This document shows positions 3,282 through 43,539 of a stretch of 64,000 nt of DNA, one piece after another. This stretch comes from an uncultured bacterium (GTDB lineage: Bacteria > Patescibacteriota > JAHJAL01). The stretch covers positions 75,914 to 139,913 of the forward strand of contig CALKWM010000013.1 of the NCBI GenBank assembly GCA_938004065.1, written 5' to 3'. The position numbers and the translations under genes were made by a program. The notes under the pieces were generated by a model. The model was not told the origin of the DNA and made no database searches. It was given only the letters and a program-made list of their open reading frames with translations. The stretch's first letter is position 1. Each line of letters opens with the position of its first letter.

Positions 3282-3426
3282 ATGAGTAGTGCTAAAAAAA
3301 AGAAATATGGTATGGATCCCCGATCCGCCCGAGGCGGACAAGTTATCGTCCGCCCCCACCCAAGGCGGGCAGGCAAGGCGGATCGATTCGAGGATGACAG
3401 ATAAGAAATTTAACCAGCACTACTTA
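3282..3426. repeat. Repeat family A copy 1: structured GC-hairpin element just after a stop codon
   Basis: Conserved ends are aatgagtagtgctaa on the left and cagcactactta on the right, which are inverted. The conserved core is ggtatggatccccgatcc...cgattcgaggatgacagataag. GC hairpins ccgcccgaggcggac and cgcccccacccaaggcgggc sit inside the core. Further copies lie at 55639-55796 and 63902-64000. Confidence 0.6.
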
Positions 3427-3463
3427 TAAATTAAAATAGTAAATTTATCATTAAAATAAAAAA

Positions 3464-6473: not shown

Positions 6474-8342
6474 ATGTTTAAAAAAATAATTAATTTATGT
6501 TTTGTAGCGATGTTGGCAGTAAATGGATTGGTAGTGGACAATGTGTTGGCTGCTGATTATCAATCAAAATGGCTAGGACAAAGTAGTTATTTGACGTTGT
6601 CTGAGGGACAGGTGGAAACGGTGTGGGTGGAGTTTCAAAATACCGGTAGTGCCAATTGGTATCGTGATGGAGATAACGCTTTGCACCTGGGAACAGCCAA
6701 GGATTTGGATCGAAAGAGTATGTTTTATAAAGAATCGGATTGGCTTTCAATGAATCGAGTCAAAATGAAACAAGAAGTGGTAAAGCCGGGCGAGACAGCC
6801 AGATTTGAGTGGCAAATAGAGGCGCCATATCAATCGGGAGTGTATCATGAATATTTTCGGCCAGTGGCGGAAAATATCACTTGGCTCAATGATCAAAGTG
6901 TGTATTGGGAATGGCGAGTTATTGGCGGAGTCGGATTTGAAGAAATGTGTGCTTCCAAAGATAGCGTAACTCAAACCAATGTTTGTACCATGCCGGAACC
7001 ATGGATGTATGAATCGAGTTGGGCGGGGCAGAGTAGTTATCTGACTATGAATACAGGTGAAGTGAAAGATTTGTGGGTGGAATTTGAAAACAATGGTTTG
7101 GCCAGTTGGGTCCAGTCGGGTGATTTTGCAGTACGGTTGGGGACGGCGAATCCGATTGATCGGGCCAGTAAGTTTTATCACAGTTCTTGGCTTTCCAATA
7201 ATCGAGTGATGATGACGCAGTCGGTGGTGAAAGCGGGTGAAAAAGCGAAATTTAGTTTCAAAGTGCAGGCGCCCACTGTTCCAGGTACGTATTATGAATA
7301 TTTTCGGCCGGTGGTGGAAAATATTTCTTGGTTAAAGGATGAGGGTGTTTTTTGGAAAATTGAAGTTTTGTCGGAGGAATCAAATAAACCGGTTGATCCT
7401 CCAGTAATTAATCCGGATGACAATAACAATTATGATGGCAAAACGGGAGTACCGATAGCCAGCGGAGCGGCAAAGGTTTCTAGTGAGGGTGCTTTTGAGG
7501 TGTACAATGCTTATACCAATAAATTGATCAGTACAGTTGGTGCCGGGACACAAGTGGCGTTGAAATACGAGGACGGGAAATACAAAATATGGGTGGGAAA
7601 TTTGTACTATGAATCGCCCGATTATGTACAATTGCGAGCAAAAAATGGCGCGATATTGCGGGTGGATTCGTACAATGACATAAAATCCTGGAATTCCAGT
7701 TTGAATGACAATTTGTTTCGCGATACGATTGAAATTCGATATTCGGATATGACCAATCAAACTTGGATTATCAATGAATTGTCGATGGAGGATTATGTGG
7801 CGGGAATTGCTGAATCGGGCAATACGTCACCGGCCGAGTATCTCAAAGCAATGGCAATTGCCGGCAGGACGTATGTGACATATCATAAAAATCGCGGTGG
7901 TCGACATCCGGAAAATTTTATCGATTTATACAATAGTGTCAATGGCAATGGTGATGATCAAGTATATCGTGGTTATGGTTTTGAGATAAGAAATCCAAAT
8001 GTGGTGGATGCGGCCAAAAAAACAGTGGGGATGGTGGTAAAATATGATGGTAAAGTAGTAGTAACACCGTATTTTTCCCAGAGTGATGGTCGAACCAGAT
8101 CGTCTTTTGAGGTATGGGGCAGTACCAGTTATCCATGGTGTCAATCAGTTGATGATCCGTACAACAAAGGTAAAGAACTACGGGGACATGGAGTCGGATT
8201 GAGCGCCAGTGGGGCTTTGGCGTATGCTTCGGAAGAAGGAAAAAATTATGACTGGATATTGAAATACTATTATACCGGTATAGAAATTGGAACGATAAAT
8301 TCGGCTAGTGAAAGAGTGAGAGTGGGGATATATAAATTATAA
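6474..8342 (+). CDS. Secreted SpoIID/LytB-domain protein with two tandem roughly 140-aa N-terminal repeat domains
   Basis: Signal peptide MFKKIINLCFVAMLAVNGLVVDNVLAADY. Internal duplication of QSSYLT...EYFRPV...W blocks. The C-terminal region YVAGIAESGNTSPAEYLKAMAIAGRTYV...YFSQSDGRTRS...RGHGVGLSASGA matches the SpoIID/LytB signature. Confidence 0.7.
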   Translation: MFKKIINLCFVAMLAVNGLVVDNVLAADYQSKWLGQSSYLTLSEGQVETVWVEFQNTGSANWYRDGDNALHLGTAKDLDRKSMFYKESDWLSMNRVKMKQEVVKPGETARFEWQIEAPYQSGVYHEYFRPVAENITWLNDQSVYWEWRVIGGVGFEEMCASKDSVTQTNVCTMPEPWMYESSWAGQSSYLTMNTGEVKDLWVEFENNGLASWVQSGDFAVRLGTANPIDRASKFYHSSWLSNNRVMMTQSVVKAGEKAKFSFKVQAPTVPGTYYEYFRPVVENISWLKDEGVFWKIEVLSEESNKPVDPPVINPDDNNNYDGKTGVPIASGAAKVSSEGAFEVYNAYTNKLISTVGAGTQVALKYEDGKYKIWVGNLYYESPDYVQLRAKNGAILRVDSYNDIKSWNSSLNDNLFRDTIEIRYSDMTNQTWIINELSMEDYVAGIAESGNTSPAEYLKAMAIAGRTYVTYHKNRGGRHPENFIDLYNSVNGNGDDQVYRGYGFEIRNPNVVDAAKKTVGMVVKYDGKVVVTPYFSQSDGRTRSSFEVWGSTSYPWCQSVDDPYNKGKELRGHGVGLSASGALAYASEEGKNYDWILKYYYTGIEIGTINSASERVRVGIYKL

Positions 8343-8353
8343 AAAAACATTCC

Positions 8354-8416
8354 AAACTTTCCAAACATTTTCTGCGCCCTAGGCGCATCCGCCTTGGGCG
8401 GAAAACTTTCCAAACA
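8354..8416. repeat. GC-palindrome mini-element (family C) flanked by a 14-bp direct repeat
   Basis: The sequence aaactttccaaaca occurs at 8354-8367 and again at 8403-8416. Between the two copies lie twin hairpins gcgccctaggcgc and ccgccttgggcgg, downstream of the SpoIID-like gene. Confidence 0.5.
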
Positions 8417-8502
8417 AAATGAGTAGAAAGTAGAAAATGATAAATGCTAAATTGTAATATTGCTAAATTATTTGATAATTGATCATTGGAAATTAATTTA
8501 AG

Positions 8503-9081
8503 ATGATTCGTTTGTTTGCTAAAAAACCCGGGAGAAGGAATAGGAAGCCAAAACAGGAGAAATCCAAATGGTTTTCAGGTTTTTTGAAATCGATAAAAAA
8601 GACGAACAAAAGAAAACTTCGGAGCACGGTTAGAAAAGGTACGGTAACAAAGTCGATTAACAGTACCGGTTGGTATCGTGCTTTTTTGAAATCACGTTTG
8701 TTCAATGTTGTTTTGATGATGGTGGTGGCGTATATGGTTTATCTAACCGGTAGGGAGGCATTGATCAATTATTATCAGTCAAAACAAGTGGCCAAAATAG
8801 AGACAGAAAATGCTAAAATAAGACAAAAGAATGACGAACTCAAATATTTGCTTGAATATTATAAAACTGATAGTTATGCTGAATTGGAGGCCAGAAAGTA
8901 TCTGAATATGAAAAAGCGAGACGAGCAGGTGGTGGTTGTGCCGGTAGATGTAAGCGAAACTCAATTTGGGGTGGAGGTTGAACAGGGGATGGAAGTGGTA
9001 AAAAAAGCAAATTATTTGAAGTGGTGGGATTTCGTATTTGCCGATATCAGCCAATTGCCAAGTAGTAGGGAGGGGGAATGA
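8503..9081 (+). CDS. FtsB/DivIC-like septum-formation initiator (basic N-terminus, one TM helix, coiled coil)
   Basis: Basic N-terminal tail and a TM segment (VVLMMVVAYMVYL). The coiled coil ends in the DivIC-like motif ...SYAELEARKYLNMKKRDEQVVVV. Confidence 0.5.
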   Translation: MIRLFAKKPGRRNRKPKQEKSKWFSGFLKSIKKTNKRKLRSTVRKGTVTKSINSTGWYRAFLKSRLFNVVLMMVVAYMVYLTGREALINYYQSKQVAKIETENAKIRQKNDELKYLLEYYKTDSYAELEARKYLNMKKRDEQVVVVPVDVSETQFGVEVEQGMEVVKKANYLKWWDFVFADISQLPSSREGE

Positions 9082-11023: not shown

Positions 11024-12325
11024 ATGAAGAAGCGAAGATGGCAGGGACAGATGACGGCTGAATTGTTGAAAAATTATTCAAAAAGAGAGCCGATGTGTCG
11101 GCATTTTTTGACGTGTGGCGGATGTAGTTTTCAGGATTTTGAATACAAGGATCAATTAGAAGTGAAAGCGAAAAAAGTGGGAGAGTTGTTTGATGGGTGT
11201 GGAATCTGTCACACTGAAATCCTGCATTGGCGGGATTCTGCTCCTTCTATTTTTGGAGGAGAATTTAAAGAATGGGGGTATCGGACGAGAATGGATTTAG
11301 TGGTAGGTAAAGCGGGAATTGGTTTGCGAAAAAAAAGACGATTTGATGAAATTGAATTTTTACAGGAGTGTTGGTTGATTGATAATAATGTTTTGCAGTT
11401 TTTAAAAGAAGTCTATCAAAAGGGAATTGAAGTAGGATTGATCCCGTATGATTTGGTGACACATGAGGGAGAATGGCGATACTTGAGTGTACGGATCAAT
11501 GAGAAAAATGAGTTGATGTTAATATTTGTAACGAAGAGGGGGGTGGAAAACAAAATCTCAAAACTCAAAACTCAAATCTCAAAATCACAACTCACAACTC
11601 AAAACTTTTCTGTCAAATCAATTTATCATGTGGTGAATGACGGGTTGGGAGATAGTAATTTTGGGGAGATAAAGAAATACTGGGGGGAAGAGTATTTGCA
11701 GTATTCAATATGCAATATTCAATATGCAATAGGACCAAATACGTTTTTTCAAAACAATATTCCTTTGGTAAATAAACTGGTGGATAAAATAGTGGATAAT
11801 GTGGACGAAGACGATAGAGTGTTAGATTTGTATTGTGGAGTGGGGACTTTGTCGTTACCGGTGGCTAAGAAATGCCGGGAAGTTTTGGGAGTGGAGTTGA
11901 TGGAAGAGAGTATTGGGTTGGCGAGGAAGAACGCTGTTAATAACAATATTGATAATGTGGAGTTTGAGGCGAAAAGTGTTGAAGATATATTTGATGGAAA
12001 CTCAAAATTTAAAGCTCAAAACTCAAAACCACAACTAAAAACTCAAAAACCGAATCTCAATGAATACAATGTATTGATGTTGGATCCGCCGAGGAAGGGA
12101 TTGGAGAAGGTGGCGGGAAAGTTGTTGGAATATGATTTTGATAAAATAGTATATATGTCGTGCAATCCGCTGTCGTTAGTGAAAGATTTGCAGGTTTTGG
12201 TGAGAAAATGGCAGATTGAAGAGGTGTCTTTGTGGGATTTGTATCCGCAGACACCGCATGTGGAAGTTTTGGTGTTGCTAAGAAACAAGAAACAAGAAAC
12301 AAGAAACAAGAAGCAAGTATTATGA
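11024..12325 (+). CDS. 23S rRNA (uracil-5)-methyltransferase, RlmD/RumA family, with in-frame low-complexity insertions
   Basis: Fe-S motif CRHFLTCGGCSFQDF. SAM-binding motif VLDLYCGVGTLSLP. DPPRKG motif. Inserts ISKLKTQISKSQLTTQN and NSKFKAQNSKPQLKTQKPN. The gene ends in an (aaacaag)n tandem repeat. Confidence 0.8.
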   Translation: MKKRRWQGQMTAELLKNYSKREPMCRHFLTCGGCSFQDFEYKDQLEVKAKKVGELFDGCGICHTEILHWRDSAPSIFGGEFKEWGYRTRMDLVVGKAGIGLRKKRRFDEIEFLQECWLIDNNVLQFLKEVYQKGIEVGLIPYDLVTHEGEWRYLSVRINEKNELMLIFVTKRGVENKISKLKTQISKSQLTTQNFSVKSIYHVVNDGLGDSNFGEIKKYWGEEYLQYSICNIQYAIGPNTFFQNNIPLVNKLVDKIVDNVDEDDRVLDLYCGVGTLSLPVAKKCREVLGVELMEESIGLARKNAVNNNIDNVEFEAKSVEDIFDGNSKFKAQNSKPQLKTQKPNLNEYNVLMLDPPRKGLEKVAGKLLEYDFDKIVYMSCNPLSLVKDLQVLVRKWQIEEVSLWDLYPQTPHVEVLVLLRNKKQETRNKKQVL

Positions 12326-12416: not shown

Positions 12417-13202
12417 ATGCGGGGAAATTCGGACAGATTTTATATCAAAGAGGGGTTGGGGTCGGATTTGTTGTGTATCAAAGACAAGGAATTGATCAGG
12501 CAGTGGCGGAAGGTGATGCGTTTGGGTGAGGGAGATGTGGTGCGGTTGTTTGATGGAAGCGGGTATGAATATCAATATTCAATATGCAATACGCAATATG
12601 CAAATAAAGCGCAATTGAAATTGATTGATAAACAATATTTTGAGGAAAAAGAAAATAAAGTTTTTTTGGGGTTTGGGGTTTTGCATGATCAGGCACGTAT
12701 GGAATGGATGTTGGAAAAGTGTACGGAGTTGGGAGTGGATAGGTTTATTCCTTTAGTTTGTGACAATTCGCAGCTTTATATGAGAAACTCAAAGCTCAAA
12801 ATTCAAAGTTCAAAACCACAACTCAAAACCAGTAAGCTTAAAAAACAGGAGAGGTTGGAGAAAAAGATTGTTGAGGCGTGTGAACAGTGTGGGAGAGTGA
12901 GAGTGCCGGGGATAGAAACAATTTGGTCCATAAATGATATTGATGATGTTGTAGGGGCGGACCCAAGTGTCCGCCCGAGGGTGATAGTATTGGATAAATT
13001 AAAAATTAGAAATGAAAAATTAAAAATTGATATATATAAAAATATTTTGTTATTGGTAGGACCGGAGGGAGGATGGAGTGAGAGGGAATTAAAATATTTT
13101 GCAGAAAATAATTTAGAATTTATGTCGGTGGGTGAAAATGTTTTGCGGGCGGAGACGGCAGCGGTGGCGGGAGTGGTAAGACAAGAAATAAGAAATAAGT
13201 AA
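12417..13202 (+). CDS. rsmE: 16S rRNA (uracil1498-N3)-methyltransferase RsmE with in-frame insertions
   Basis: N-terminal PUA-like region and the C-terminal LVGPEGGWSERE motif. Carries in-frame the same two insert families as the preceding gene, plus a GC-palindrome insert. Confidence 0.75.
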   Translation: MRGNSDRFYIKEGLGSDLLCIKDKELIRQWRKVMRLGEGDVVRLFDGSGYEYQYSICNTQYANKAQLKLIDKQYFEEKENKVFLGFGVLHDQARMEWMLEKCTELGVDRFIPLVCDNSQLYMRNSKLKIQSSKPQLKTSKLKKQERLEKKIVEACEQCGRVRVPGIETIWSINDIDDVVGADPSVRPRVIVLDKLKIRNEKLKIDIYKNILLLVGPEGGWSERELKYFAENNLEFMSVGENVLRAETAAVAGVVRQEIRNK

Positions 13203-17782: not shown

Positions 17783-17854
17783 TCCGGGGTAGCTCAGCGG
17801 TAGAGCAATTGACTGTTAATCAATGGGTCGTGGGTTCGAGCCCCACCCCCGGAG
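17783..17854 (+). tRNA. tRNA-Asn (anticodon GTT)
   Basis: Acceptor TCCGGGG pairs with CCCCGGA. D-arm is gctc-agcggta-gagc. Anticodon stem-loop is attga-CTGTTAA-tcaat. T-arm is gtggg-ttcgagc-cccac. Discriminator is G. Confidence 0.85.
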
Positions 17855-19435
17855 TATTATGGGATTTCGAGCGTATGCATTGAACAACTGTTCTTTGTTT
17901 ACGCTCTTTTTCATAGGTTCTAACATTCTTTTTATTCTATCAACTTCTTTTTTAGCTGGTATGAGAAAAGAGTAAAAGGAAAGAAGCTCTAAAAAGAGCT
18001 TCTGGTCCTTAAGGATAAAATTCGAGCCAAGAGAAATAAAGATTTCTTTTTTGGTTTCAATATCACCTTCATTAAATCTGATATAAGCATATTCGGCTAT
18101 TCCCAAATGTTTTTCGGCAGTTTCTAACCAGCTATTAAGTCTTTTATCAGAATTTTCGATAACTTCATTGATTCTACTTTTTTCTTTTAGGAGATCTGAT
18201 TTTTTGGTGATATATTCTTCTTCATTTAACTCGTTATTCAGGCGTAGCTCTAACAATCGGTCTAATTTTTTAGTACAATCAGTGTAGGCTTTATGCTGTG
18301 AGGCGATGATCAGGTTACGATCATTCGCTTCTTTTTTATTGTGCTTTTTGAGTTCTCCATAGAGATATTCGTGAAAGTCGGGTGGAATTGTAAATGAAGA
18401 TATAATTTCGTTGATCTGCTTTTCCAATTCTTTTACTTCTATACCTTTTTGATAGCATTTTTGCTTTCTGTGTTTTGTGCAGTGGTAGTAAGTATATTGG
18501 TGAATATTACCGTTTTTTTGTTTCTTGATTTTGGTTTCGGCGGTGATAGAGGCTCCACATTCTCCACACTTGATCAAACCAACATAAGCAAAGACTCTAT
18601 TTTTGGGTCTTGGTTTGCCTTCTCTACCTAAAATGAGTTGGATGCGATCATATTCTTCAATAGAGATAATTGCTTCATGCTTGCCTTTAAACCATTCGCC
18701 ACTATTTTTTGGATATTCAAATTCTCCATAATAAAAAGAACTGGTGAATATTCGGTAAATAGTGCTTCGGGAAAATTCCTTTCCTTGGCGGTTTGTTAAT
18801 TTCCATTTACTAAGGGCTATATGTCTAATTTGTGGGGGAGTGTATTTTCCGGTTAGCATAAGATCAAACATTCTACGGACCAACTCGAAACGGTCCGGAT
18901 CTTTGATAATTTCTTTTTCACCTTTCCGTTTAAAGGGATTGTGCATATAGCCAAGTGGGGCGTAGGTTGGAAGCCAACCACGTTTTGCTTTGGTCCGAAG
19001 ACCTCTTCTGGTATCAGTACTTAGGTCCATGATAAATTGATTGGCTACGCCCAATTCTACAGCCATAACGATAACATTATCAGTGGGATAGTAGCTTTGA
19101 CTATGAGTTTGAATATGTTTGATTATTCCTTGTTGAATCAACCAACTAATTTGACCACCGTCAATGGGGTTACGAGCTAATCGATTTAATTTCCAACATA
19201 ATATGCCCTGAGCTTCACCTTTGTTTATTCTTTGAATCATTTCGTTAAATATTTCTCTTCCTGGTGCTTTGGCTGATTTTGATTCAGAAAGAATTTCTAC
19301 AATGCGTATGTTTTTTTGTTCAGCAATTTTGGTTAATTCCTGAATCTGTGAATCAATTGAAGCCATTTGTCGATCTTCGTTTTCGGTTGATTTGCGAGCA
19401 TAAAGGAAATATTTTAGTCTTTGATCGTTTTTCAT
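17816..19435 (-). CDS. Large serine recombinase (integrase type); its 3' end overlaps the tRNA-Asn 3' end
   Basis: N-terminal resolvase catalytic domain YARKSTENEDRQMASIDSQ. Recombinase domain and a Cys-rich zinc ribbon (CGECGAS...YYHCTKH). 539 aa. Confidence 0.8.
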   Translation of the reverse strand: MKNDQRLKYFLYARKSTENEDRQMASIDSQIQELTKIAEQKNIRIVEILSESKSAKAPGREIFNEMIQRINKGEAQGILCWKLNRLARNPIDGGQISWLIQQGIIKHIQTHSQSYYPTDNVIVMAVELGVANQFIMDLSTDTRRGLRTKAKRGWLPTYAPLGYMHNPFKRKGEKEIIKDPDRFELVRRMFDLMLTGKYTPPQIRHIALSKWKLTNRQGKEFSRSTIYRIFTSSFYYGEFEYPKNSGEWFKGKHEAIISIEEYDRIQLILGREGKPRPKNRVFAYVGLIKCGECGASITAETKIKKQKNGNIHQYTYYHCTKHRKQKCYQKGIEVKELEKQINEIISSFTIPPDFHEYLYGELKKHNKKEANDRNLIIASQHKAYTDCTKKLDRLLELRLNNELNEEEYITKKSDLLKEKSRINEVIENSDKRLNSWLETAEKHLGIAEYAYIRFNEGDIETKKEIFISLGSNFILKDQKLFLELLSFYSFLIPAKKEVDRIKRMLEPMKKSVNKEQLFNAYARNPIILRGWGSNPRPID

Positions 19436-19611
19436 AGTAATAGAGATTAATGGATAAACTAATAGGACGGTTCTGGTTGACCCAACTTACCACTAATGGT
19501 TTGTCGGCAGAACCGCCCTGTTTAGGCGACAAAAATTCATTAGTGTAAAAAATTGTTGGGTCAACACTTATATTATAAAATATTTTAAGGTGCATAAAAA
19601 TCATTTTTTTG

Positions 19612-19947
19612 TCATGGAGGGTTTGTTTCGATCATGCCTTTATATCTTGATTTGTAGTATTTGATTTTAAGGCATTTAATACATCCGATTTTTTTGTTTA
19701 TAGTGTCGATGTAGATTATTCGGATTCTGCGATGGCAATTTGGGCAGGAAAACCAGTATCGTTGGCCATTAAACCTTGTTTTTGATATGGATAATTTAAT
19801 CGTTAAATCTTGAATAGAAACTTTTGATCGTATAAATTCTGATTTGGCAATCTGGTGGTAGTTTTTGATGATATTATCGATGTCAATTTTTTGATAATTC
19901 AAGTTTGTTAGATTTTTTCCTAAATCGTATGGCTTTATTGAATTCAT
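19612..19947 (-). CDS. Small zinc-ribbon protein (CxxC...CxxC), hypothetical
   Basis: FSCPNCHRR...GCIKCLK. Extremely AT-rich gene. Confidence 0.4.
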   Translation of the reverse strand: MNSIKPYDLGKNLTNLNYQKIDIDNIIKNYHQIAKSEFIRSKVSIQDLTIKLSISKTRFNGQRYWFSCPNCHRRIRIIYIDTINKKIGCIKCLKIKYYKSRYKGMIETNPP

Positions 19948-19952
19948 GTTTT

Positions 19953-20549
19953 TTAATTATTGTTAATAAATTCTTGTTTTTCTGATACAAAAGCATTTTT
20001 ACTTTGAATCTTGATATCAATAGATGGTGATTTGATTTGTTGGAGTAGAGATAGGGATGAATTAAATTGTCTATTGGCTCGATCAATTTCTTTACTAATT
20101 AGATAGCAGTATTGAATGCTTAATTTATTTACTGATTCTGAGCTAGAGCATTGACTGAGGATCCTTGAATATTGAATAATTTTTGTGTATGAGAGAGCAA
20201 TATTATTAGCCATGGCTTTTTCAATTGAGGTTGTGCATTGGTATTCTTTTATTATGTCTCGTGCGAATTGTATTGCCATTGGTCGGTATTCTTTTTTATG
20301 ACAAAAAGCTACAGTGTAACCTGTGTCTAAACCGAAGATATTAGAGAAATCATGAAATAATTCATCAATCTGTTTTTTCTTACTTTTTTTGCCAAGGTAA
20401 TGTTTTTTAAGAAGGATACCAATTTGATCTAATAAAACATCTGGATCGTGGTTTGTTTTGATTTTGTCTTTGACGAAATTTTTTATGTCTTCTGTGGTTT
20501 CCAATTGTTCAATTTGTTTTCTTTCAATTGGCTTAAGATTGTTTCGCAT
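19953..20549 (-). CDS. Hypothetical protein of the AT-rich element
   Basis: 198-aa ORF. Tightly packed with neighbours on the same strand. Confidence 0.4.
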   Translation of the reverse strand: MRNNLKPIERKQIEQLETTEDIKNFVKDKIKTNHDPDVLLDQIGILLKKHYLGKKSKKKQIDELFHDFSNIFGLDTGYTVAFCHKKEYRPMAIQFARDIIKEYQCTTSIEKAMANNIALSYTKIIQYSRILSQCSSSESVNKLSIQYCYLISKEIDRANRQFNSSLSLLQQIKSPSIDIKIQSKNAFVSEKQEFINNN

Positions 20550-20599
20550 AGTATTTAATTAATTATTAATAAATAAATAGATTTACCCCACACCCAATC

Positions 20600-21808
20600 T
20601 CACAAGTTAAGATTTGGGAATATTAATATTTTTTGTTGATTGTCTGGACCGTAATCTTGGACGATCAATCCCGCATTTTCCAACATAGGTAAAATTTCTT
20701 GTCTTAGTTTGTATTCAGGTAGAGGGTATTGGTAGGTTTGAAAGAATCTTTTCAAAATCTCTGGTCTACTTATTCCAATTCTTATATCTGGATAGTTTGA
20801 TATTTTTTCTTTATACAGAGGGAGAATAATTTCATTGAAAATACTATAAAGGTAGGGAGAGATATTTAATTCTTGGCTGACCGATATTTTGGACCATAGA
20901 TCATGGGCATAATTAATATCTTCTTCGTTGGCATATATGTTATTACCAACTTTTTTTCTAAACCAGAGATTAAGCAGGCTATAACATTTGACTAATGAAA
21001 TGAATCTTCCAATATCTCTTTGGTCGCGTGGTCTTAGTTTCTTTTTGGAGTCGAAAAATAATTTTTCTATTAAGTCGGGTTGTTCGATAATAATATTTTC
21101 TATTTTGGCTGATTTGATAGCCTCGATCCGATCAATAAGTGTTTGTCTTTCAGGATTATTTTGAATATTATTTTCATAAACTTCTTTGTTTGCTTCTTTG
21201 GTAATTTTAGTTTGTATTGACTCTTTTAATTTGTCTTGATTGGTGTCAGGTGAGAGCATGAGAAATCTTGTACTTTCCTGTTCGTCAATCTTGATACTTG
21301 CGCTACAGAAAATAACTGATGGGTAACCAATAATTATTGCTGTTTTAGTGCGGTGACCTCCTTTTTCTTTACGATCAGTTATCTTATTTATTAGTTCTTT
21401 TTTGTCATGAGAAAGTAATGGCCGGAATTTTTCGAGTAGATAATGATCTGGTTGGTCTAAAAAGATAATTATTTTTCTCGATAGGTTGATAATAGTTGTG
21501 TTGGTTTTTTGGTTGTATTCTCCTTGTTCATGAAAGAATGATGTTGGAGAACATGATCCAAGTATTAGTAAATCTTCTTTAGGGAAATAATTTGAGATTT
21601 CTAAGGGGATGTAACTTTTACCCGCTGATGAGGGGGCATTGAAACTAATATTGAATTGAGAATCATTTGTATATGCCGATAAACAACATAAAAATGTTGC
21701 TAGTTTATTGTGATTGTCTTTTTTGACCGTTAGGTCTAGAATTTTGATTATTTCCTCAGGAGTAATTGGATTGAAATTTTTATTAATAGAAATATTATTT
21801 TCTTTCAT
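20600..21808 (-). CDS. P-loop NTPase, possibly a primase/helicase-like replication protein of a mobile element
   Basis: Walker A motif NAPSSAGKSY and a Walker B-like IIFLDQPD. Sits adjacent to the recombinase. Confidence 0.45.
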   Translation of the reverse strand: MKENNISINKNFNPITPEEIIKILDLTVKKDNHNKLATFLCCLSAYTNDSQFNISFNAPSSAGKSYIPLEISNYFPKEDLLILGSCSPTSFFHEQGEYNQKTNTTIINLSRKIIIFLDQPDHYLLEKFRPLLSHDKKELINKITDRKEKGGHRTKTAIIIGYPSVIFCSASIKIDEQESTRFLMLSPDTNQDKLKESIQTKITKEANKEVYENNIQNNPERQTLIDRIEAIKSAKIENIIIEQPDLIEKLFFDSKKKLRPRDQRDIGRFISLVKCYSLLNLWFRKKVGNNIYANEEDINYAHDLWSKISVSQELNISPYLYSIFNEIILPLYKEKISNYPDIRIGISRPEILKRFFQTYQYPLPEYKLRQEILPMLENAGLIVQDYGPDNQQKILIFPNLNL

Positions 21809-21998
21809 GGTGATTTTGATTAATATATTTGGATAATTTTTTTTCTTCTGATGGAGTTAGGGGCTTGGAATAAACTACATAATACAAATTGAGAAATTTT
21901 TGATATTGGTCATAGGCCTCCTTATCACTTAAATCTTGATTAAAGTGTTTCTTTACCATTTGTTTAAACTTCTCAATTGTTTCTTTGCTGATAATCAT
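21795..21998 (-). CDS. Small hypothetical protein
   Basis: 67-aa ORF overlapping the upstream gene stop, as expected for an operon. Confidence 0.3.
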   Translation of the reverse strand: MIISKETIEKFKQMVKKHFNQDLSDKEAYDQYQKFLNLYYVVYSKPLTPSEEKKLSKYINQNHHERK

Positions 21999-22235
21999 TT
22001 ATGAGTGGTAAATCCTTGTCTTAAGCAGTTTTTGATTATATGCAAATAGAATTGGATCGACCTTGGCTTGGTGACTGAAATATAATTCGATAAGTCTATC
22101 GAGGTTGTCGTCGCGTATGATATAGAAGACGGTTGTGTTATCTTTGTTTTTTTCGGTGCTAGAAATACAGTATCCAGATGAAATAATGAACGAACAAAGA
22201 TTGAGATCTGATGATTTAAAATAGTTATTTTGCAT
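21999..22235 (-). CDS. Small hypothetical protein
   Basis: 78-aa ORF directly abutting the neighbouring gene. Confidence 0.3.
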   Translation of the reverse strand: MQNNYFKSSDLNLCSFIISSGYCISSTEKNKDNTTVFYIIRDDNLDRLIELYFSHQAKVDPILFAYNQKLLKTRIYHS

Positions 22236-22393
22236 AATTGTTTTATTAATAGTAATTTTTTTCCAGTTGCTATTTTTCAGAATAGAGTAAATATGAGATT
22301 CCCTGTATTGGTCCTCGTGAAAATTTGAATAATAAAAAAATATGGTTAGAAAACCATATTTTAAAAAGTTATTAACACCTATTTGAAGGACTG

Positions 22394-23515
22394 TTACTTC
22401 TTGATTATTTCGTATTTAACATAATTTAGGACATATCCATGACCTTTTTTCTTGTTTATCAAATTATGTCTAACATTTAAATATTTTATAAATCTTTTGT
22501 TTATCTTTTTTATGGCTTTGTTTATGGATGATATTCCAGATTTGTATTGAATTTTAGAATTTAATTCTGTACTGGATATTGGGTTTTTATTAAGTAGTAA
22601 AACAATTTTTTTGCAATTATTTTTTATAGGATATATGAATTTGCGGTTGAAAATTTCCTTATATATGCCGTATTTTTTGCTAATATGAATAGTTGTTTTC
22701 CCATTGTTGTCGTTTTGTTCACATATCAAGTTTTGATATGTGTCGTTATTAATAAGTTGGTCAATTATGTGTAAGTGGAGTCTGTGCACATCGGAATATA
22801 TTTCGTCAATATTGTATGAATCAGAATAGTCTATTTTGCCGGATATTAAACATTTTATTTCATTACTCATCAGTTTGTATTCCACATATTGATTGGTTAA
22901 ATATGTTTTATCAATTAATTTTTCTAATTTTTTAGATTCATAAATTATTAGATAAATATTTATGAGATTATTAAGACTAGCCCATAATTTGGTGATGCTT
23001 TCTGTTTCGTAGTTATTTTTTGTTGTTAAATAGTTTCGAAATGTATCTTCGTATTTAAATTTTTTTTCTTGTTTCTTTCTATTGTGTTTTTGATTAAGAA
23101 AAAATTTATTTACCAATTTTGAATATGGTGATTTGCCAATCTTGAATATAATTTCTTTTATGGTTTCGTAATTATATTTGGTGTTAATTATTGAAGGAGT
23201 GAATTCTCTTGCTGGGGGAAATAGTAATTCAGAATATTCGGTATTTGTTGTAATGAAATTGAGACTATTACTATTGTTTGTAATAATTGTTTGAAGCTTC
23301 TTAATTATTTTATTTGTAGTATTATTTATTTTATTCTGTTTGTTGGTTAAATTGTTGTAAGCATTTCGGCTTTCTTTTATTTTTTTGTTAAGTATTTCTT
23401 TGGTTATTGTGTTGTCATTTATAAATTTTATATAGTCTGCAACATTGATGAAGAATATTTTTGGGTCTTGTGAAATTAAATTAAAATTTTGATTAATTGA
23501 ATCGATTAAATTCAT
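22394..23515 (-). CDS. Hypothetical Asn/Lys/Ile-rich protein (373 aa) of the AT-rich element
   Basis: Long ORF in a segment of roughly 25% GC. No motif recognised. Confidence 0.45.
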   Translation of the reverse strand: MNLIDSINQNFNLISQDPKIFFINVADYIKFINDNTITKEILNKKIKESRNAYNNLTNKQNKINNTTNKIIKKLQTIITNNSNSLNFITTNTEYSELLFPPAREFTPSIINTKYNYETIKEIIFKIGKSPYSKLVNKFFLNQKHNRKKQEKKFKYEDTFRNYLTTKNNYETESITKLWASLNNLINIYLIIYESKKLEKLIDKTYLTNQYVEYKLMSNEIKCLISGKIDYSDSYNIDEIYSDVHRLHLHIIDQLINNDTYQNLICEQNDNNGKTTIHISKKYGIYKEIFNRKFIYPIKNNCKKIVLLLNKNPISSTELNSKIQYKSGISSINKAIKKINKRFIKYLNVRHNLINKKKGHGYVLNYVKYEIIKK

Positions 23516-23922
23516 ATAAATTGTAATAGAAATATAATATTTAAACTGTTTTTATGTTAGTTTAATTGTATTATCTTATCAAATAAAGACTGACTAGATT
23601 TGAATTTTGGTGATAAAAAAGATTATCATTAATGTGGTTAGTCATATTACTGAATAGTTAACCGTATAATTTAGAGCCTAAACCTTATAAAGTAATATTT
23701 TTAAGGCATGGCGAAAAAACCTTATGCATAAAGATGGTTCTTCTGACCAGCTTACTTGCATAAGGTCTATATCCGAAAGGGTATAGGGTGATCTCGAAAG
23801 AGAAAGCCGAGTTGTGTTAGAAGAGCCTTTTTTGTATTTTGAAAGAAAATTTATTTAGGATGGACAAAGTAATTATAAATTTGGTGTAATTCTTTATTTA
23901 AATAAATTATTGGGTAATTATT

Positions 23923-24672
23923 ATGGACAAAGAAAAAGAAGGTGAGCAAATAGTTTCGGTCAAATCGTCTAATTTTGGTTGCCTTACTGTTTTTATTTGG
24001 TTCGTAGGATTTATGTGTTTATTTTGGGGGTTAATAATAATTTCGAATTTTTCGATTGTTAATTTTGTTTCTGGTGTTTTGTTGGTAATCGCAGGTTTAA
24101 TTATGTTTCCACCTGTGAGAAATATGATTGAGAAAAAAACAGGAATAAAATTATCCAATGCTTTGTCTTGTGTGTTAGTTTTTATTCTTTTTGTAATAGG
24201 AATTGTGCTTGGTTCTTCATTTAGACAGATAAACAGTAATTTGGATAATAAGTCAGATAATAAACAAGAAACAATCAAGACAATAAATATGGAGAAGTTG
24301 GTCGGTTTTGATTTGCGGAACAAACAACCTATTGGGGATGAGAATATTTATACATATAATCCAGTAAAGAATAATGATTATTCTATTGCTGTTTTAACGA
24401 GTAAAACAGCTAGCAATATTCATGAAGATAGCTATTTATTGGAAAAAAATAGTAAAGATATTAATGGAATAAATGTTGAAGTTGGGTATAAAGATTTTTC
24501 AGAAAAGGATGGTGTAGTACTTACAAGAAAATATGAAGGTCTTGCTTTTGATTTTGAGTATAATAATCGATTTTACTCTGGGGAAGTTTCTAATTTAAAA
24601 GGTGAATCAGTAAAAGAGAAATTGGATGAAATTTTAGTTAATTTTCTGCAATCAGTCCAGGGTAAATCTTAA
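23923..24672 (+). CDS. Membrane protein with N-terminal TM helices and a C-terminal soluble domain
   Basis: Two or three hydrophobic helices in the first roughly 100 aa. Confidence 0.45.
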   Translation: MDKEKEGEQIVSVKSSNFGCLTVFIWFVGFMCLFWGLIIISNFSIVNFVSGVLLVIAGLIMFPPVRNMIEKKTGIKLSNALSCVLVFILFVIGIVLGSSFRQINSNLDNKSDNKQETIKTINMEKLVGFDLRNKQPIGDENIYTYNPVKNNDYSIAVLTSKTASNIHEDSYLLEKNSKDINGINVEVGYKDFSEKDGVVLTRKYEGLAFDFEYNNRFYSGEVSNLKGESVKEKLDEILVNFLQSVQGKS

Positions 24673-27669: not shown

Positions 27670-28311
27670 GTGAATTTCATTGTGTTTATCAGTAAAATAA
27701 TTTATATGCCAAAGTCTAGAGGAGAATATTCGGAAGATATTGAAAGTCAATATAGAAGACTTGAGAGAGTATATAATAAGTTAACTCAAGATTTTAACAA
27801 AGAAAGTTTATCAAAAAGTTCTCAAGAGATTCTTGATTCTGTGATTGAATTTATGACCGTTTGTTATCACTTGCGTGAATTGATAAAAAAAGACCGAAAG
27901 GTTAACAATGTTATTAAGAATAAGTTGCCATTATTTACAGATGTAGATAATAACATTGACCCTACTGATTCAAAAATTGGTTTATTAATTTGTCGTGATT
28001 TGTGTAACAAGTCTAAACATGGATCATTAGACAAAAAGTGGAGACCAAATGATGAGCATACAAAGATTAATATAACTGGTGGGTCGCTGTTTTCAGTTTC
28101 AGTAGAAGAATTAAAAGCCGCTAATAAAGAAAAAATGACTATTCATCTTAAGGAAGGTGATAGTATTTATATAGGAAATTTTACGGTTTTTTTTCGAGGA
28201 AAAAATTATAATTTACTTGGTGTGGTGGATTCATGTATGCATTTTTGGAAAAAATTTTTTGAAGAAAATAATCTTCTTATGCCGAGATATACATTGCGAA
28301 ATAACTTGTGA
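27670..28311 (+). CDS. Hypothetical protein
   Basis: 213-aa ORF. Its stop codon lies inside box 1 of repeat family B. Confidence 0.45.
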   Translation: MNFIVFISKIIYMPKSRGEYSEDIESQYRRLERVYNKLTQDFNKESLSKSSQEILDSVIEFMTVCYHLRELIKKDRKVNNVIKNKLPLFTDVDNNIDPTDSKIGLLICRDLCNKSKHGSLDKKWRPNDEHTKINITGGSLFSVSVEELKAANKEKMTIHLKEGDSIYIGNFTVFFRGKNYNLLGVVDSCMHFWKKFFEENNLLMPRYTLRNNL

Positions 28312-28412
28312 GTAAGGGAGGGGGGTAACTAAATTGTAATCAGTTAATTGGTTTTAGTTTTGAGTATTGCGCGGAGTTTTTCTTAAAAACACAGTTTATG
28401 ACTGTGTTTTTA
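28306..28412 (+). repeat. Repeat family B copy 1 (box 1 over the stop codon, box 2, then a terminator hairpin)
   Basis: Box 1 is gtgagtaagggaggggggtaactaaattgtaat. Box 2 is ttgcgcggagtttt. The terminator is aaaaacacagtttatgactgtgttttt. Confidence 0.6.
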
Positions 28413-28485
28413 TTAATTAGAATTTAATACTATTATTGTATAATAACGTTTGGAACTTAGATTGTATATTTTCTGTTAATAAAAT

Positions 28486-29244
28486 ATGGCGATGAAAATG
28501 TTTGAAAAAGCGATAAAAAATTTTATTCCTTATATGATAGCTATTCTTGTAGGGATAGTTTTTTGTTACTTGTTAATTAGTCTTGGTGGTAGTTTGTCGA
28601 GTGTATTTATTGAAATCTCTGTTTTTTTGTTAATATTGTTCATCTGTTATGTGATTTTTTTATTTGTAGATGAAAAAGAGAGTAATTATATTATGACTCT
28701 CGAAGAAGGCAGAGATATTGCAAATAATAATTTAGAAAAGGACCAAATTTTGTCTTTATTGTGTAGTTATGGGTCCCAAAGAGTTGGTCAAGATCAGGTT
28801 GTTTGGAATATGTTTGGTGCTTTTTGGGCTACAAATGCATTGTTATTGGTTAGTGTTTTTTCTGCTGATGAAGTATGGGATAAAAAATATGTTTGGTTAG
28901 TTGTGTCATTAATTGGTTTTATGGTCTCGGTGGCTTGGTTTTTAGTTCAGGATAGAATGTTGAATAGAATTGCTAGATATGAAATTTCAATTAAGTTTAT
29001 AGAAAAAACGTTAGTTTTTCCAAAACCATTGAGAACATATTCAAATTCTCCTCTAAGGTCCTTGATTGATGTAAGGGCTAGAAATGTTATGCGTTTGGTT
29101 GTTTTTTTGATCGGTGTGACTTGGTTGATAAAAGCCTTACTTGTATATGTACCTTCAATATTTATTATTGTAATTAAGTTTTTTGTTTGGATTGTTGCAG
29201 TGTTAGTATGGGTTATTGCATATTTGCTAAGTATTTTGTATTAG
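28486..29244 (+). CDS. Polytopic membrane protein, hypothetical
   Basis: Six or more hydrophobic helices. Confidence 0.5.
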   Translation: MAMKMFEKAIKNFIPYMIAILVGIVFCYLLISLGGSLSSVFIEISVFLLILFICYVIFLFVDEKESNYIMTLEEGRDIANNNLEKDQILSLLCSYGSQRVGQDQVVWNMFGAFWATNALLLVSVFSADEVWDKKYVWLVVSLIGFMVSVAWFLVQDRMLNRIARYEISIKFIEKTLVFPKPLRTYSNSPLRSLIDVRARNVMRLVVFLIGVTWLIKALLVYVPSIFIIVIKFFVWIVAVLVWVIAYLLSILY

Positions 29245-29312
29245 TAAAGTGGTTCTAACATCGTGTATTGCGCGGAGTTTTGTTTTGAAAGCACAGTTTA
29301 TGACTGTGTTTT
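29243..29312 (+). repeat. Repeat family B copy 2 (box 2 plus terminator hairpin, box 1 degenerate)
   Basis: Box 2 is gttctaacatcgtgtattgcgcggagtttt. The hairpin is the same aaagcacagtttatgactgtgttttt as in copy 1. Confidence 0.55.
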
Positions 29313-29381
29313 TGTTGTTTTTGTATTGAATTGAGATATATTAGTGATATGATTAACTTACTAGTTGGTTAATATGATTTT

Positions 29382-33387: not shown

Positions 33388-33614
33388 TACTTATCATTTT
33401 TAGCCTAAGCTCGTACTTGTATGGCTAAAGTTAGTATCTGTGAGTTATATTAGGTGAGTGTGAAGTAATTGGAATGGGAAAGTAGAATGGGAGTTTCTTG
33501 GAAATGTTTGTATTCTGAAATTTGTCGACAAGTATATAATTAAAAGAAGGGGAATGATAATTTTTTATTAAAAGTTGTTAAGATGTTGAGAAAAAGAAGA
33601 AATAATATAAATAA

Positions 33615-33715
33615 CTAGTGAGTGAGGGTGTGGGGTAACTAGATTGTAATTAGTAAAGAGGTTCTAACATCGTGTATTGCGCGGAGTTTTTGAAACGAGG
33701 TCTCGAACCTGTTTT
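33615..33715 (+). repeat. Repeat family B copy 3, upstream of the first DGR target gene
   Basis: Box 1 ctagtgagtgagggtgtggggtaactagattgtaat, then gttctaacatcgtgtattgcgcggagtttt, then a hairpin. Confidence 0.6.
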
Positions 33716-35878: not shown

Positions 35879-35973
35879 ATTCTTAGACTCTTTGCTTTTC
35901 TTTTGACTCTTTGTAGCTTTGACCCTTTGACCCTTTGATTTTTGAATCGCGCATTAATTAAGAAAGAAAAATT

Positions 35974-38118: not shown

Positions 38119-38440
38119 ATTCTTAGACTCTTTGCTTTTCTTTTGACTCTTTGTAGCTTTGACCCTTTGACCCTTTGATTTTTCTTGGGGTATTCTATTA
38201 TATTAAAATCAGATTGATTGTTTCGGACGGCTACGGCTTTCCGAAAATCATTCCGACCGGTGCAAGTTAAGTATGTTATCGGCCAAGGCTGGTAACAGAG
38301 ATTTGTATTTTGTCATTAAAAAAGAACAAACTTGGTGTGGTGTGCTCCGGGTGATTTTTGATCACAAATAATATTCAGTCCAGTCTTTTTTGAGCCAATC
38401 AACCAGACGGACGGTGGCGAGGATGGCACACCATACGAAA

Positions 38441-38571
38441 ATCGACTCCGATGGCAATCCGAACGTGTTCAATCTGAACTACAACGACGACCAGCTGAAG
38501 CTGAATGCGAACAACGCTGAGCCGGACAAGCACTGGAATTCTGACAATCATTGGGTCTTCTCTGCCCGCAA
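38441..38571 (+). repeat. DGR template repeat (TR)
   Basis: Adenine-rich copy of the VR. Every TR-VR difference maps to a TR adenine. The overlapping ORF 38390-38710 is judged non-coding. Confidence 0.85.
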
Positions 38572-38594
38572 TTATGCTCTTTTCCGTGACTTGA

Positions 38595-38915
38595 TCACAA
38601 ATCGCGGTTTTTTCTGGCTGGGTTATCTAGGTTTTTATGCCAGCCGCCCAGCATCCGACCGGCTTCGATTAATTTCTCGGAAATTGCTGTATATTTGCCA
38701 TTGGGAATGATCCTGGCTTCCCAAGCTATTGAAGTCAGGAATTTAAGGACATCGAGAGTTAGGATGCATTTGGTTAGCTGATCTTTTTTCTGATCTTTGG
38801 CGGAATAGTAGGCGGCATGTGTCAATTCCAACAGATCGAGAAATTTATTTTCAATTCTTTGGCCGATAGTAAAACGGGAGGTTTTGGGAATATGGGGAAC
38901 AAGATCAATCCACAA
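38595..38915 (-). CDS. avd: DGR accessory variability determinant (Avd-like four-helix-bundle protein)
   Basis: 106 aa. Resembles the four-helix-bundle / 23S-rRNA-intervening-sequence protein family (TIGQRIENKFLDLLELTHAAYY...) to which Avd belongs. Sits between the TR and the RT. Confidence 0.7.
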   Translation of the reverse strand: MWIDLVPHIPKTSRFTIGQRIENKFLDLLELTHAAYYSAKDQKKDQLTKCILTLDVLKFLTSIAWEARIIPNGKYTAISEKLIEAGRMLGGWHKNLDNPARKNRDL

Positions 38916-38962
38916 CAGATATCCCTCTTTGATCCGAAAGAGGATCGAAGGAAGTTCTTTAC

Positions 38963-38981
38963 GAGAGAGAGAGAGAGAGAG
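38963..38981. repeat. (GA)9 dinucleotide microsatellite between the avd and RT genes
   Basis: gagagagagagagagagag read directly from the sequence. Confidence 0.8.
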
Positions 38982-39034
38982 TAAGAAGGCGGCCGCGATT
39001 TCATAGTTATGAAGATATTATTTCAATAGATAAT

Positions 39035-39988: not shown

Positions 39989-40119
39989 CTAGTGAGCGAG
40001 GGTGTGGGGTAATAGTTGGCTCTCTATAAAACAAGTTCTAACATCGTGTATTGCATCCGCCCAAGGCGGACAGGCTGGAGTTTAGTTTTTGAAAGCACGC
40101 TTTGTAGGCGTGTTTTTGC
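39989..40119 (+). repeat. Repeat family B copy 4, carrying a nested GC palindrome
   Basis: ctagtgagcgagggtgtggggtaatag...gttctaacatcgtgtattgc, then the inserted atccgcccaaggcggacaggct, then ggagttt, then the terminator gcacgctttgtaggcgtgtttttgc. Confidence 0.6.
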
Positions 40120-43333: not shown

Positions 43334-43405
43334 TGAGGAGGGGTGTGGGGTAACTAGCATGTAACCACTAAAGCGGTTCGAACTAAAGTGTCCACCGAAT
43401 CGGCG
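43329..43405 (+). repeat. Repeat family B copy 5 (box 1 supplies the TAG stop of the CotH gene)
   Basis: aaactagtgaggaggggtgtggggtaactagcatgtaacc, then gcggttcgaac...ccaccgaatcggcgg. Confidence 0.55.
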
Positions 43406-43539
43406 GATGCATGGATTATTTAGATGAGAGGAACCGAGCTTTACTCTCGTAGTTCGCTACTCTCATTGTTCCCCTTTGTTAAGGAATAAAAAAAGACCAA
43501 ATGAATGGTTATTTATGAAAAATCAATGTATCTAGTTGT

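Follow-up and report, generated by a model that had tools for sequence, protein, structure and literature searches.

Palindromes in the window

The window analyzed here is a 64,000-nt stretch of DNA from an uncultured bacterium, and our subject is a set of short GC-rich palindromes scattered through it, which a first-pass annotation had grouped as one family (Family C). The window stems from a metagenome-assembled genome of Patescibacteria (the Candidate Phyla Radiation, CPR), the group to which the named homologues of its RsmE protein belong. GC content is ~35%, GC skew is positive and very strong, and nearly all genes lie on the plus strand. One of the palindromes is a pair of hairpins, hereafter the twin, in the 160-nt spacer between a gene for a SpoIID-domain protein (spoIID, 6474–8342) and divIC (8503–9081). 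It lies 30 nt past the spoIID stop codon, and the flanking genes are co-directional.

GC palindromes do recur in this low-GC window, as the first-pass annotation had said: every sequence that it described is present, and CCGCC-N3-5-GGCGG occurs four times where 0.03 occurrences are expected. CCGCC itself is scarce on the G-skewed strand (15 sites), and half of its sites fall within palindromes. The stems are perfect, GC, and 6–8 bp long, with loops of 3–6 nt, as in a 20- to 40-bp repetitive extragenic palindromic (REP) sequence. The proposed nesting was also borne out, with palindromes in two copies of a repeat termed A (A1 and A2) and an extra 20-nt block in one copy of a repeat termed B (B4) that other B copies lack (Table 1). 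The twin hairpins are there too, though they start at 8373 rather than 8371, and the annotation had overlooked one member, TCCACCGAATCGGCGGA in repeat copy B5. The notion of a single family fared less well. The dispersed members are related, but judging by sequence Family C comprises three things: the 30-nt twin, with consensus TCCGCC-NNA-GGCGGA + TGCGCC-TNN-GGCGCA; a 20-nt single unit, with consensus TCCGCC-CRA-GGCGGA-CARGY; and one palindrome in rsmE of a separate, GTAG-tagged, REP-like kind. We consider it probable that Family C represents miniature non-coding, hairpin-folding elements that spread by insertion in two related forms, the twin (two 6-bp GC hairpins with 3-nt loops) and the single hairpin with its CARGY tail.

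No covariance model of Rfam 15 matched a Family C copy, either in the window or in the 20 loci with a twin that were scanned. A literature search on the junction 12-mer, on both strands, found nothing, and searches of the literature on palindromes in Patescibacteria and on GIY-YIG, tRNA, and CPR turned up no description of the elements.

The 14-bp direct repeat

The window twin is bounded by a perfect direct repeat of the 14-mer AAACTTTCCAAACA, at the positions that the first-pass annotation had given; under a second-order Markov model, 0.16 direct 14-mer repeats that lie within 100 nt and are not in tandem would be expected per window. The annotation had read this repeat as the target-site duplication of a ~35-bp element, and that reading did not stand. 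From 8349, the plus strand runs (ATTCCAAAC)(TTTCCAAAC)(ATTTTC^AAAC)(TTTCCAAAC), that is, four units of 9/10 nt with the twin (^) within unit 3. Each 14-mer consists of the tail of one unit, the whole of the next, and one base, and the copies stand 49 nt apart, which equals 19 nt (two units) plus the 30-nt twin. Because the repeat amounts to two of the four units in an array that the twin splits, it is not a target-site duplication; it is part of a short tandem array and no transposon footprint. Membership in a longer tandem repeat was the very outcome that the annotation had named as counting against its own proposal, and the insert is the 30-nt twin.

Empty and filled sites

About a dozen comparisons of empty and filled sites, made between repeat copies in a contig or between contigs, show exact insertions of 30 or 20 nt with zero duplication, and two of these are in this genome. 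Within repeat A, the palindrome-free copy A3 (L141:11078–11160, minus strand) reads GATCCCCGA^TATCGAAA, and A1 carries TCCGCCCGAGGCGGACAAGT at ^. The tail of the A1 unit (...GGCGGACAAG) also occurs in the D-loop of a pseudo-tRNA in contig L039. Relatives reached via RsmE homologues include L010 (59% identity) and L017 (46%); the RsmE of L014 and L015 is 49% identical. The B copy of L010 (16500–16610) reads GTATTGCG^TGGAGTTTAGTT, whereas B4 has TCCGCCCAAGGCGGACAGGC at ^; B1–B3 are likewise without the insert. A single unit like TCCGCCCAAGGCGGACAGGC with a different loop is found in L034, ending ...GGCGGACAGGC. The 20-nt units of A1 and B4 are clean insertions nested in other repeats, free of target-site duplication.

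Comparable pairs were found in other genomes. In the high-GC contig L109, a gene for a REP-associated tyrosine transposase (RAYT; Y1_Tnp) stands between inverted GTAG-tagged REPs with the layout GTAG-NG-GCGACCT-TC-AGGTCGC. This REP reads GCGACCTTC^AGGTCGC where it is empty, and its third copy holds a 30-nt twin variant at ^, exactly between TC and A. One repeat in L023 has three filled and three empty copies, L078 and L090 provide further pairs, and L081, L097, and L134 provide pairs in REPs; in L039, L087, and L127, pseudo-tRNA arms can be compared with intact tRNAs. When the 12 nt on each side of every twin were joined into a 24-mer query, many unfilled paralogues were recovered. The spoIID-divIC spacers of L010 and L017, at 18 and 15 nt, are too diverged to align with that of the window, and a scan of genome contigs with the TrmA-like protein as query returned only relatives at 26–29% identity.

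The twin across metagenomes

We scanned metagenome contigs for the twin with the pattern TCCGCCNNNGGCGGATGCGCCNNNGGCGCA, which has 24 fixed bases. It matched at least 120 contigs from many projects and yielded 130 copies (129 unique); these and all following twin counts are among the matches listed. The contigs span a GC content of 0.35–0.70 (35–70%), and in L109 the IlvC protein is closest to Dehalococcoidia (~80% identity). In L017, the twin TCCGCCCGAGGCGGA+TGCGCCTTGGGCGCA (L017:4777–4806) lies upstream of spoIID and is identical at 28 of 30 positions to the reverse complement of the window twin, at a locus that differs from that of the window and in a genome whose RsmE shares only 46% identity. 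TCCGCC-CAA-GGCGGA also occurs in L014 and L015; one copy lies 3′ of tRNA-Asn, the other within a group I intron of tRNA-Asn, in a peripheral insertion. Near-identical units at non-orthologous sites in distant genomes imply either mobility or a strong sequence-specific constraint. Carriage by phages or plasmids was rejected: a single match to the twin pattern was found in 2.9 million viral contigs, and no full match among PLSDB plasmids. In an independent assembly of the window species, the Logan assembly of SRR6007447 (L002), the contig breaks off inside the twin hairpin, at its position 1. Such elements can break short-read assemblies.

In the 129 unique copies, the first loop has the form NNA and the second TNN. 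The two hairpins differ at position 2 (C-G vs. G-C), which disfavors one long hairpin; the minimum-energy structure predicted for the twin in isolation is a single long hairpin, not two. The fold z-score of the window twin is −3.8 as RNA and −4.3 as DNA. Ten compensatory double changes occur among near variants, indicating that pairing matters, and many further copies are truncated or decayed. Unusual loops are common to the copies of one contig (L023, L092, and L115), while the loops CRA/TTG are common to CPR-like contigs and GAA/TCT to high-GC contigs. Such sharing within a genome or lineage suggests that copies are templated from resident ones. In a twin variant at about L077:340–400, the second hairpin is expanded by a nested one (TCCG-GCACCAC-TTTA-GGTGGTGA-CGGA), a layout that suggests recursive invasion of hairpin loops.

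Insertion sites

Twins were found in several settings. In high-GC contigs they sit at the tip of GTAG-tagged REP hairpins; they also occur in the T-loop (between C56 and R57), D-loop, or anticodon loop of truncated or pseudo-tRNA copies, inside degenerate heptamer arrays, and in frame in genes for UvrD/AddA-like proteins, AcrB, LeuRS, phosphoglucomutase (two tandem twins), and UvrC. Together with the rsmE palindrome and its strain variants, these copies in housekeeping genes confirm that genic copies preserve the reading frame. With unit lengths of 15, 20, or 30 nt and no stop codons outside the loops, they survive as short in-frame peptide insertions.

The left flank of the twin carries T at −2 in 115 of 129 copies (89%) and C or T at −1 in the same number, with purines at +1 and +2 on the other side. 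This flank is biased to [A/C]TT[C/T] but not invariant, and it is not duplicated. An outer helix of at least 6 bp surrounds 26/129 copies vs. ~2 expected, and short-period arrays host 21/129 twin sites vs. 0.6% of control sites. In all 16 T-arm contexts the orientation of the twin is identical. Nineteen of the 130 twins lie within ~120 nt of a tRNA; the hosts of these tRNA-associated twins are truncated or pseudo-tRNA arms beside intact genes, mostly 11–46 nt away.

Two other interpretations of individual sites were discarded. The twin is not a tRNA intron, as ARAGORN found no tRNA spanning any of the 130 sites once the twin had been deleted in silico. Nor can the copy in L015 be counted as a clean in-frame genic copy in an HNH open reading frame (ORF), since it also lies within the 40-nt peripheral insertion of the group I intron, where it forms a TCCGCCCAAGGCGGA hairpin. 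This intron (78 bits against Rfam) and its HNH ORF split the tRNA-Asn of L015 in the anticodon loop (L015:18947–19575); in the sister strain L014, the gene is intact (L014:19960–20040).

Proposed mechanism and alternative explanations

The comparisons above show that the elements enter DNA as exact blocks, leaving the target unduplicated. The twin lands 3′ of a T-rich motif, [A/C/T]T[C/T]^R, in a fixed orientation relative to its target, and mostly where the motif may become single stranded: in the loop of another hairpin (a REP loop or the copy of a tRNA T- or D-arm) or in a slipped short tandem array. Compensatory changes maintain the hairpins, and new copies are templated from resident ones. 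The window twin has landed in the 9/10-mer array between spoIID and divIC, which yields the 14-bp repeat, and two single units lie inside A1 and B4. We infer that mobilization occurs in trans, through single-stranded DNA, by a hairpin-specific enzyme. Candidates would be an enzyme of the HUH/Y1 (IS200/RAYT) type that recognizes hairpins, whether nuclease or transposase, or the small GIY-YIG nucleases encoded beside twins in CPR-like contigs. Most likely, the copies in the window are carried along passively, and they could secondarily act as RNA or DNA hairpins.

As for these candidates, 3 of the 120 loci contain a Y1_Tnp gene. In two of these loci it lies ~210–240 nt away from a twin or a variant of it, and one of the two genes is a RAYT with inverted GTAG REPs on its flanks. 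ORFs of ~80 aa made up of a GIY-YIG domain only lie 9–45 nt from the twin in 9 of 120 loci, all CPR-like, and the usual order is a pseudo-tRNA with the twin in its T-loop, then the GIY-YIG gene, then the intact tRNA. In nine CPR-like contigs (L037, L069, L034, L039, L086, L137, L087, L118, and L115), such ORFs form arrays interspersed with tRNA genes (Gln, Ser, and Pro), some intact and some truncated; the layout resembles that of homing-type cassettes by which tRNA genes become partly duplicated.

Several observations weigh against this explanation. The conservation of the stems is in part imposed by the search pattern, and copies found outside pattern selection number 10 exact and 19 variant or decayed, so that twin conservation is real, though not absolute. 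At the window loci we found no polymorphism for the presence of a copy: the one in rsmE is fixed among strain variants, and the intergenic sites of relatives are unalignable. The 20-nt single units lack the TTY^R site of the twin. The window and 18 kb of its flanks contain no Y1 or GIY-YIG gene, and no mobilizing enzyme was identified. The two hairpins abut each other and the ends of the element, leaving no room for the guide and cleavage sequences of IS200/IS605 elements of the IS608 type, and a search of 614 kb of loci for an autonomous element, with separated hairpins on either side of an ORF, found none. Insertion of IS200/IS605 elements has a lagging-strand bias; twin orientation has none relative to local GC skew (37:33).

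We weighed four other explanations. The one proposed by the first-pass annotation, a ~35-bp REP- or Correia-like transposon that duplicated 14 bp of target by staggered cleavage, is very improbable. It would account for the perfect repeat around the window twin and for the 11-bp repeat of different sequence that bounds the twin of L017, and direct repeats of at least 10 nt flank 15 of the 130 copies. However, the window repeat comes from the split array, the flanks in L017 and in L052 are arrays of the heptamer ATTTGTA, and most of the 15 repeats are tandem heptamers or tRNA fragments. Repeat length varies from 10 to 20 nt rather than being fixed as in miniature inverted-repeat transposable elements (MITEs) and Correia elements, 115 of the 130 copies have no such repeat, and terminal inverted repeats are lacking, as is any duplication in the empty/filled pairs. 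We give next to no credence to the idea that the palindromes arose locally and independently by slippage, snap-back synthesis, or chance. The region is indeed rich in short tandem repeats, but the same 15- to 30-nt sequences appear at unrelated loci and in unrelated genomes, and about 0.03 would be expected per window by chance.

Two further alternatives are stronger, yet we regard both as unlikely. The hairpins could be functional cis elements held by selection rather than mobile, serving as RNA 3′-end or stabilizer hairpins, as attenuators, or as sites for a conserved dimeric or tetrameric protein (the twin has four T[C/G]CGCC half-sites). The place of the twin just after spoIID, between co-directional genes, would suit such a role, as would the recurrence of the same stems in distant lineages, the constrained loop positions, the compensatory changes, and the C/G swap at position 2 that favors two hairpins over one; moreover, REPs are known as RNA elements (PMC3733652). 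Nevertheless, there is no U-tract or terminator-like site in 8200–8600, and the twin does not have the hairpin-plus-T-run form of an intrinsic terminator, the bases after it being AAAAC (plus strand) and GAAAA (minus strand). Pseudo-tRNA arms, REP loops, the periphery of a group I intron, and housekeeping reading frames, where copies occur, are not positions with a function. Many copies have been truncated or have decayed, paralogues of a repeat work whether or not they carry the insert, and no Rfam family matches. Individual copies may nonetheless act as RNA or DNA hairpins. A homing hitch-hiker, slightly more credible but still improbable, would be moved by a small GIY-YIG nuclease that nicks hairpin loops, such as tRNA T-loops, the break then being repaired from an ectopic twin copy via short homology and at times duplicating flanking tRNA segments. 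Nine of 14 GIY-YIG matches lie within the distance of the twin given above, a share of twins is close to tRNA genes, and partial T-arm duplicates downstream are common (20–26 nt in L131, 18 nt in L118, and also L088); a precedent is T4 SegB, a homing endonuclease of the GIY-YIG class that lies in a cluster of tRNA genes (PMC2330249). By contrast, GIY-YIG neighbors are confined to low- and mid-GC CPR-like contigs (~8% of loci) and absent from the window, its flanks, and L017, and an 80-aa protein of the catalytic domain only has no evident DNA-recognition domain. Insertions in arrays and REP loops offer no homology, and the link may be indirect, in that homing cassettes make dispensable tRNA-arm hairpins which then gather twins.

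Relation to known elements

The first-pass annotation had likened the palindromes to mobile REP or Correia elements. What survives of this is a dispersed, inserting family, as the clean extra blocks in B4 and A1 indicate; the likeness to Correia elements does not, given the missing inverted repeats and duplication, and a GTAG/CGTC tag is found on the rsmE copy only.

Like the REP and REPIN sequences mobilized by RAYTs, Family C consists of short, GC-rich, non-coding palindromes that occur singly, as dimers, or in clusters (Di Nocera et al. 2013, PMC3733652; Bertels & Rainey 2011, PMC3116915). REPs, too, lie mainly outside genes, with occasional in-frame copies, notably in genes for repair and for tRNA synthetases, and are presumed to be mobilized in trans via hairpin recognition. 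The rsmE copies of the window and of L017 fit the REP family in tag and sequence. However, the twin and the 20-nt unit have no GTAG/CGTC tag, their flanks reading WTY...RR, and the two hairpins of the twin stand head to tail without a spacer, whereas REP dimers are mostly inverted. Where the twin sits inside the loops of bona fide GTAG REPs beside a RAYT, it is a passenger of the REP rather than a REP itself. Furthermore, REPINs and their RAYTs are described as lineage-specific and vertically inherited, while the twin stems occur in both Patescibacteria-like and Dehalococcoidia-like contigs.

The organellar likeness is of another sort. Paquin, Laforest, and Lang reportedly described double-hairpin elements (DHEs) in the mitochondrial DNA of Allomyces and chytrids in 2000. 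Such fungal mitochondrial modules, including the GC clusters of yeast (PMC4478555), are tiny GC-rich hairpins or double hairpins scattered in AT-rich genomes, as Family C is. They, too, occur in intergenic DNA, structural RNA genes, and, in frame, protein genes, and their mobility was inferred from presence/absence; unlike Family C, they are organellar, and there is no sequence relationship. Yeast GC clusters of the M class have a preferred target with a short duplication; the twin differs in lacking duplication and in preferring hairpin loops.

Rickettsia palindromic elements resemble Family C in lying in frame in housekeeping genes of a reduced AT-rich genome, where they add a peptide to tolerant loops, but they measure ~100–150 bp against the 15- to 30-nt units here. 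Some of them are CGTC-tagged REPs (PMC3733652). IS200/IS605 elements and their miniature derivatives, the palindrome-associated transposable elements (PATEs), share with the twin a hairpin at each end and insertion without target duplication, 3′ of a short motif that in the twin is a bias rather than an invariant sequence; they target single-stranded DNA through a Y1 transposase, and Y1 genes occur in three twin-bearing contigs. The twin departs from them in its closely packed ends, its lack of replication-strand bias, and the absence of an autonomous parent with these hairpins in the 614 kb. Correia elements and bacterial MITEs are likewise small, non-coding, repeated, and near or in genes, but they have terminal inverted repeats and a fixed target-site duplication (TA for Correia), and Family C has neither: the twin is two adjacent self-complementary hairpins, and its ends are alike only through the similarity of the hairpins. 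The nearest in kind are REP-like palindromic units and organellar double-hairpin or GC-cluster elements, but the elements differ from the named bacterial families in tag, inverted repeats, and duplication.

A broader proposal seems to us possible rather than probable. In it, the twin would be a previously undescribed mobile module with no autonomous partner, common to Patescibacteria, Chloroflexota, and probably other phyla, which invades single-stranded hairpin loops (REP loops and tRNA arms) and slipped arrays without target-site duplication via a conserved enzyme specific for the hairpin sequence. It would be among the smallest transposable units known and a regular source of 10-residue in-frame insertions in the housekeeping proteins of uncultured bacteria. 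If this is true, very different bacteria have acquired or kept a 30-nt sequence whose stems are essentially fixed and which enters hairpin loops, tRNA-gene remnants, and essential genes; this would point to an unrecognized hairpin-specific DNA enzyme. Some of the odd peptide insertions and spurious ORFs in annotations of CPR and other metagenome-assembled genomes would then have an explanation, as would assembly breaks such as that of the public assembly ending inside the twin, and relationships or gene flow linking Patescibacteria with Chloroflexota could be traced by a sequence tag. For the window itself the consequences are modest: its palindromes are most likely passengers, and to take the 14-bp repeat for the footprint of a transposon would be a mistake.

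The rsmE palindrome

The rsmE palindrome (GGGCGGACCCAAGTGTCCGCCC at 12955–12976) is in frame, as the first-pass annotation had stated, in the ORF at 12417–13202, where it encodes GADPSVRP. By its sequence it belongs to the GTAG-tagged REP type (as defined in PMC3733652), a family different from that of the twin and single units. It adds ~7–9 residues to a length-variable loop of RsmE in which the closest homologues (57–62% identity) are ~6 aa shorter, and strain variants at 97–99% identity retain it (two variants in the RsmE 90% cluster, both with the insert). The rsmE gene of L017 has three other GTAG palindromes at different positions, two of which form an inverted dimer. In-frame REPs in housekeeping genes have already been described.

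The TrmA-like and rsmE genes also contain AT-rich tandem arrays of 7 or 14 nt (CTCAAAA..., TATTCAATATGCAA), likewise in frame (Table 1). The array in rsmE encodes a lysine-rich segment (RNSKLKIQSSKPQLKTSKLKKQ) that is missing in distant homologues and different in the closest ones.

Other features of the window

Coordinates of the family members and of other features are collected in Table 1.

Table 1. Palindromes, repeats, and other features located in the window.
Feature	Position	Strand	Description
Twin hairpin, 30 nt	8373–8402	−	Consensus-orientation reading TCCGCC-CAA-GGCGGA + TGCGCC-TAG-GGCGCA on minus strand
Twin hairpin halves, plus-strand reading	8373–8387; 8388–8402	+	TGCGCC-CTA-GGCGCA; TCCGCC-TTG-GGCGGA (direct sequence)
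Tandem 9/10-mer array, units 1–2 and start of unit 3	8349–8372	+	ATTCCAAAC TTTCCAAAC ATTTTC^; holds direct-repeat copy 1 (8354–8367)
Rest of array	8403–8416	+	AAAC (unit 3) + TTTCCAAAC (unit 4) + A; equals direct-repeat copy 2
20-nt single unit TCCGCCCGAGGCGGACAAGT	3324–3343	+	In repeat A1, between CCCCGA and TATCG; palindrome TCCGCCCGAGGCGGACAAG at 3324–3342
Degenerate overlapping family units, TCCGCC CCCACCCAAGGCGGGCAGGC AAGGCGGA	3349–3382	+	In A1; stands in place of the AT-rich loop of A3
20-nt single unit TCCGCCCAAGGCGGACAGGC	40056–40075	+	Inside repeat B4; other B copies without it
Variant palindrome TCCGCCGATTCGGTGGA (minus-strand reading; TCCACCGAATCGGCGGA on plus)	43391–43407	−	Repeat B5, ~6 nt from the B4 insertion position
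Variant palindrome GCCCGCCG-ATT-CGGCGGAC	55736–55754	+	Repeat A2; CCGCCGATTCGGCGG at 55738–55752
GTAG-tagged REP-like palindrome GTAG-GGGCGGAC-CCAAGT-GTCCGCCC	12951–12976	+	In frame in rsmE; encodes VGADPSVRP
Repeat A	3293–3436; 55654–55810
Repeat A, cut by window end	63931–64000	−	Full copy is A3
Repeat B, ~115 nt	28299–28414; 29240–29316; 33609–33700; 39987–40118; 43328–43440
Repeat B	near 20550–20610	−
AT-rich 7-/14-nt arrays	11539–11598; 11685–11729; 11997–12042; 12573–12603; 12770–12842		In frame in TrmA-like and rsmE genes
Diversity-generating retroelement	33839–39988
Large ORFs ending in variable repeats	33839–35878; 35974–38118		Adjacent
Variable repeats	35735–35870; 37975–38110		Identical to each other
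Template repeat	38441–38576
Reverse transcriptase ORF	39035–39988		RVT_1
tRNA-Asn	17783–17854
Large serine recombinase ORF	17816–19435	−
Probable integrated element with a stretch of 26–31% GC	17783–24000		Reversed AT skew
LOOT RNA	23675–23808		RF03000

Within the degenerate block of A1, CCCACCCAAGGCGGGCAGGC is identical to the B4 unit at 17 of 20 positions, and two GGACARGTT half-units at ~55700–55727 precede the A2 palindrome. Repeat A is intergenic, has conserved arms that pair into a long hairpin, and lies just upstream of unrelated genes; its center is AT-rich in A3 and filled by GC palindromes in A1 and A2.

Repeat B opens with stops in all three frames (TAACTAGTGA), contains GGGTGTGGGGTAA, and closes with a canonical terminator of hairpin and T-run. 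At least six copies, directly after unrelated genes, lie in the 64 kb, and nucleotide-level conservation extends to L010 despite the 59% RsmE identity; the repeat has no Rfam match. These traits suggest that repeat B may be an undescribed small RNA or 3′-untranslated-region element.

The template repeat of the diversity-generating retroelement differs from the two identical variable repeats at 26 positions, 25 of which are adenines in the template. Its reverse transcriptase gene adjoins B4, and a link to the palindromes was rejected, as their copies are unrelated to the positions of the variable and template repeats.

The (G−C)/(G+C) value stays at ~0.3–0.47 across most of the 64 kb, an unusually strong and uniform skew, with nearly all genes on the G-rich strand. 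The tRNA-Asn gene is followed at once by the minus-strand recombinase ORF and the GC-poor stretch with reversed AT skew; from this arrangement, 17783–24000 is probably an element integrated at tRNA-Asn.

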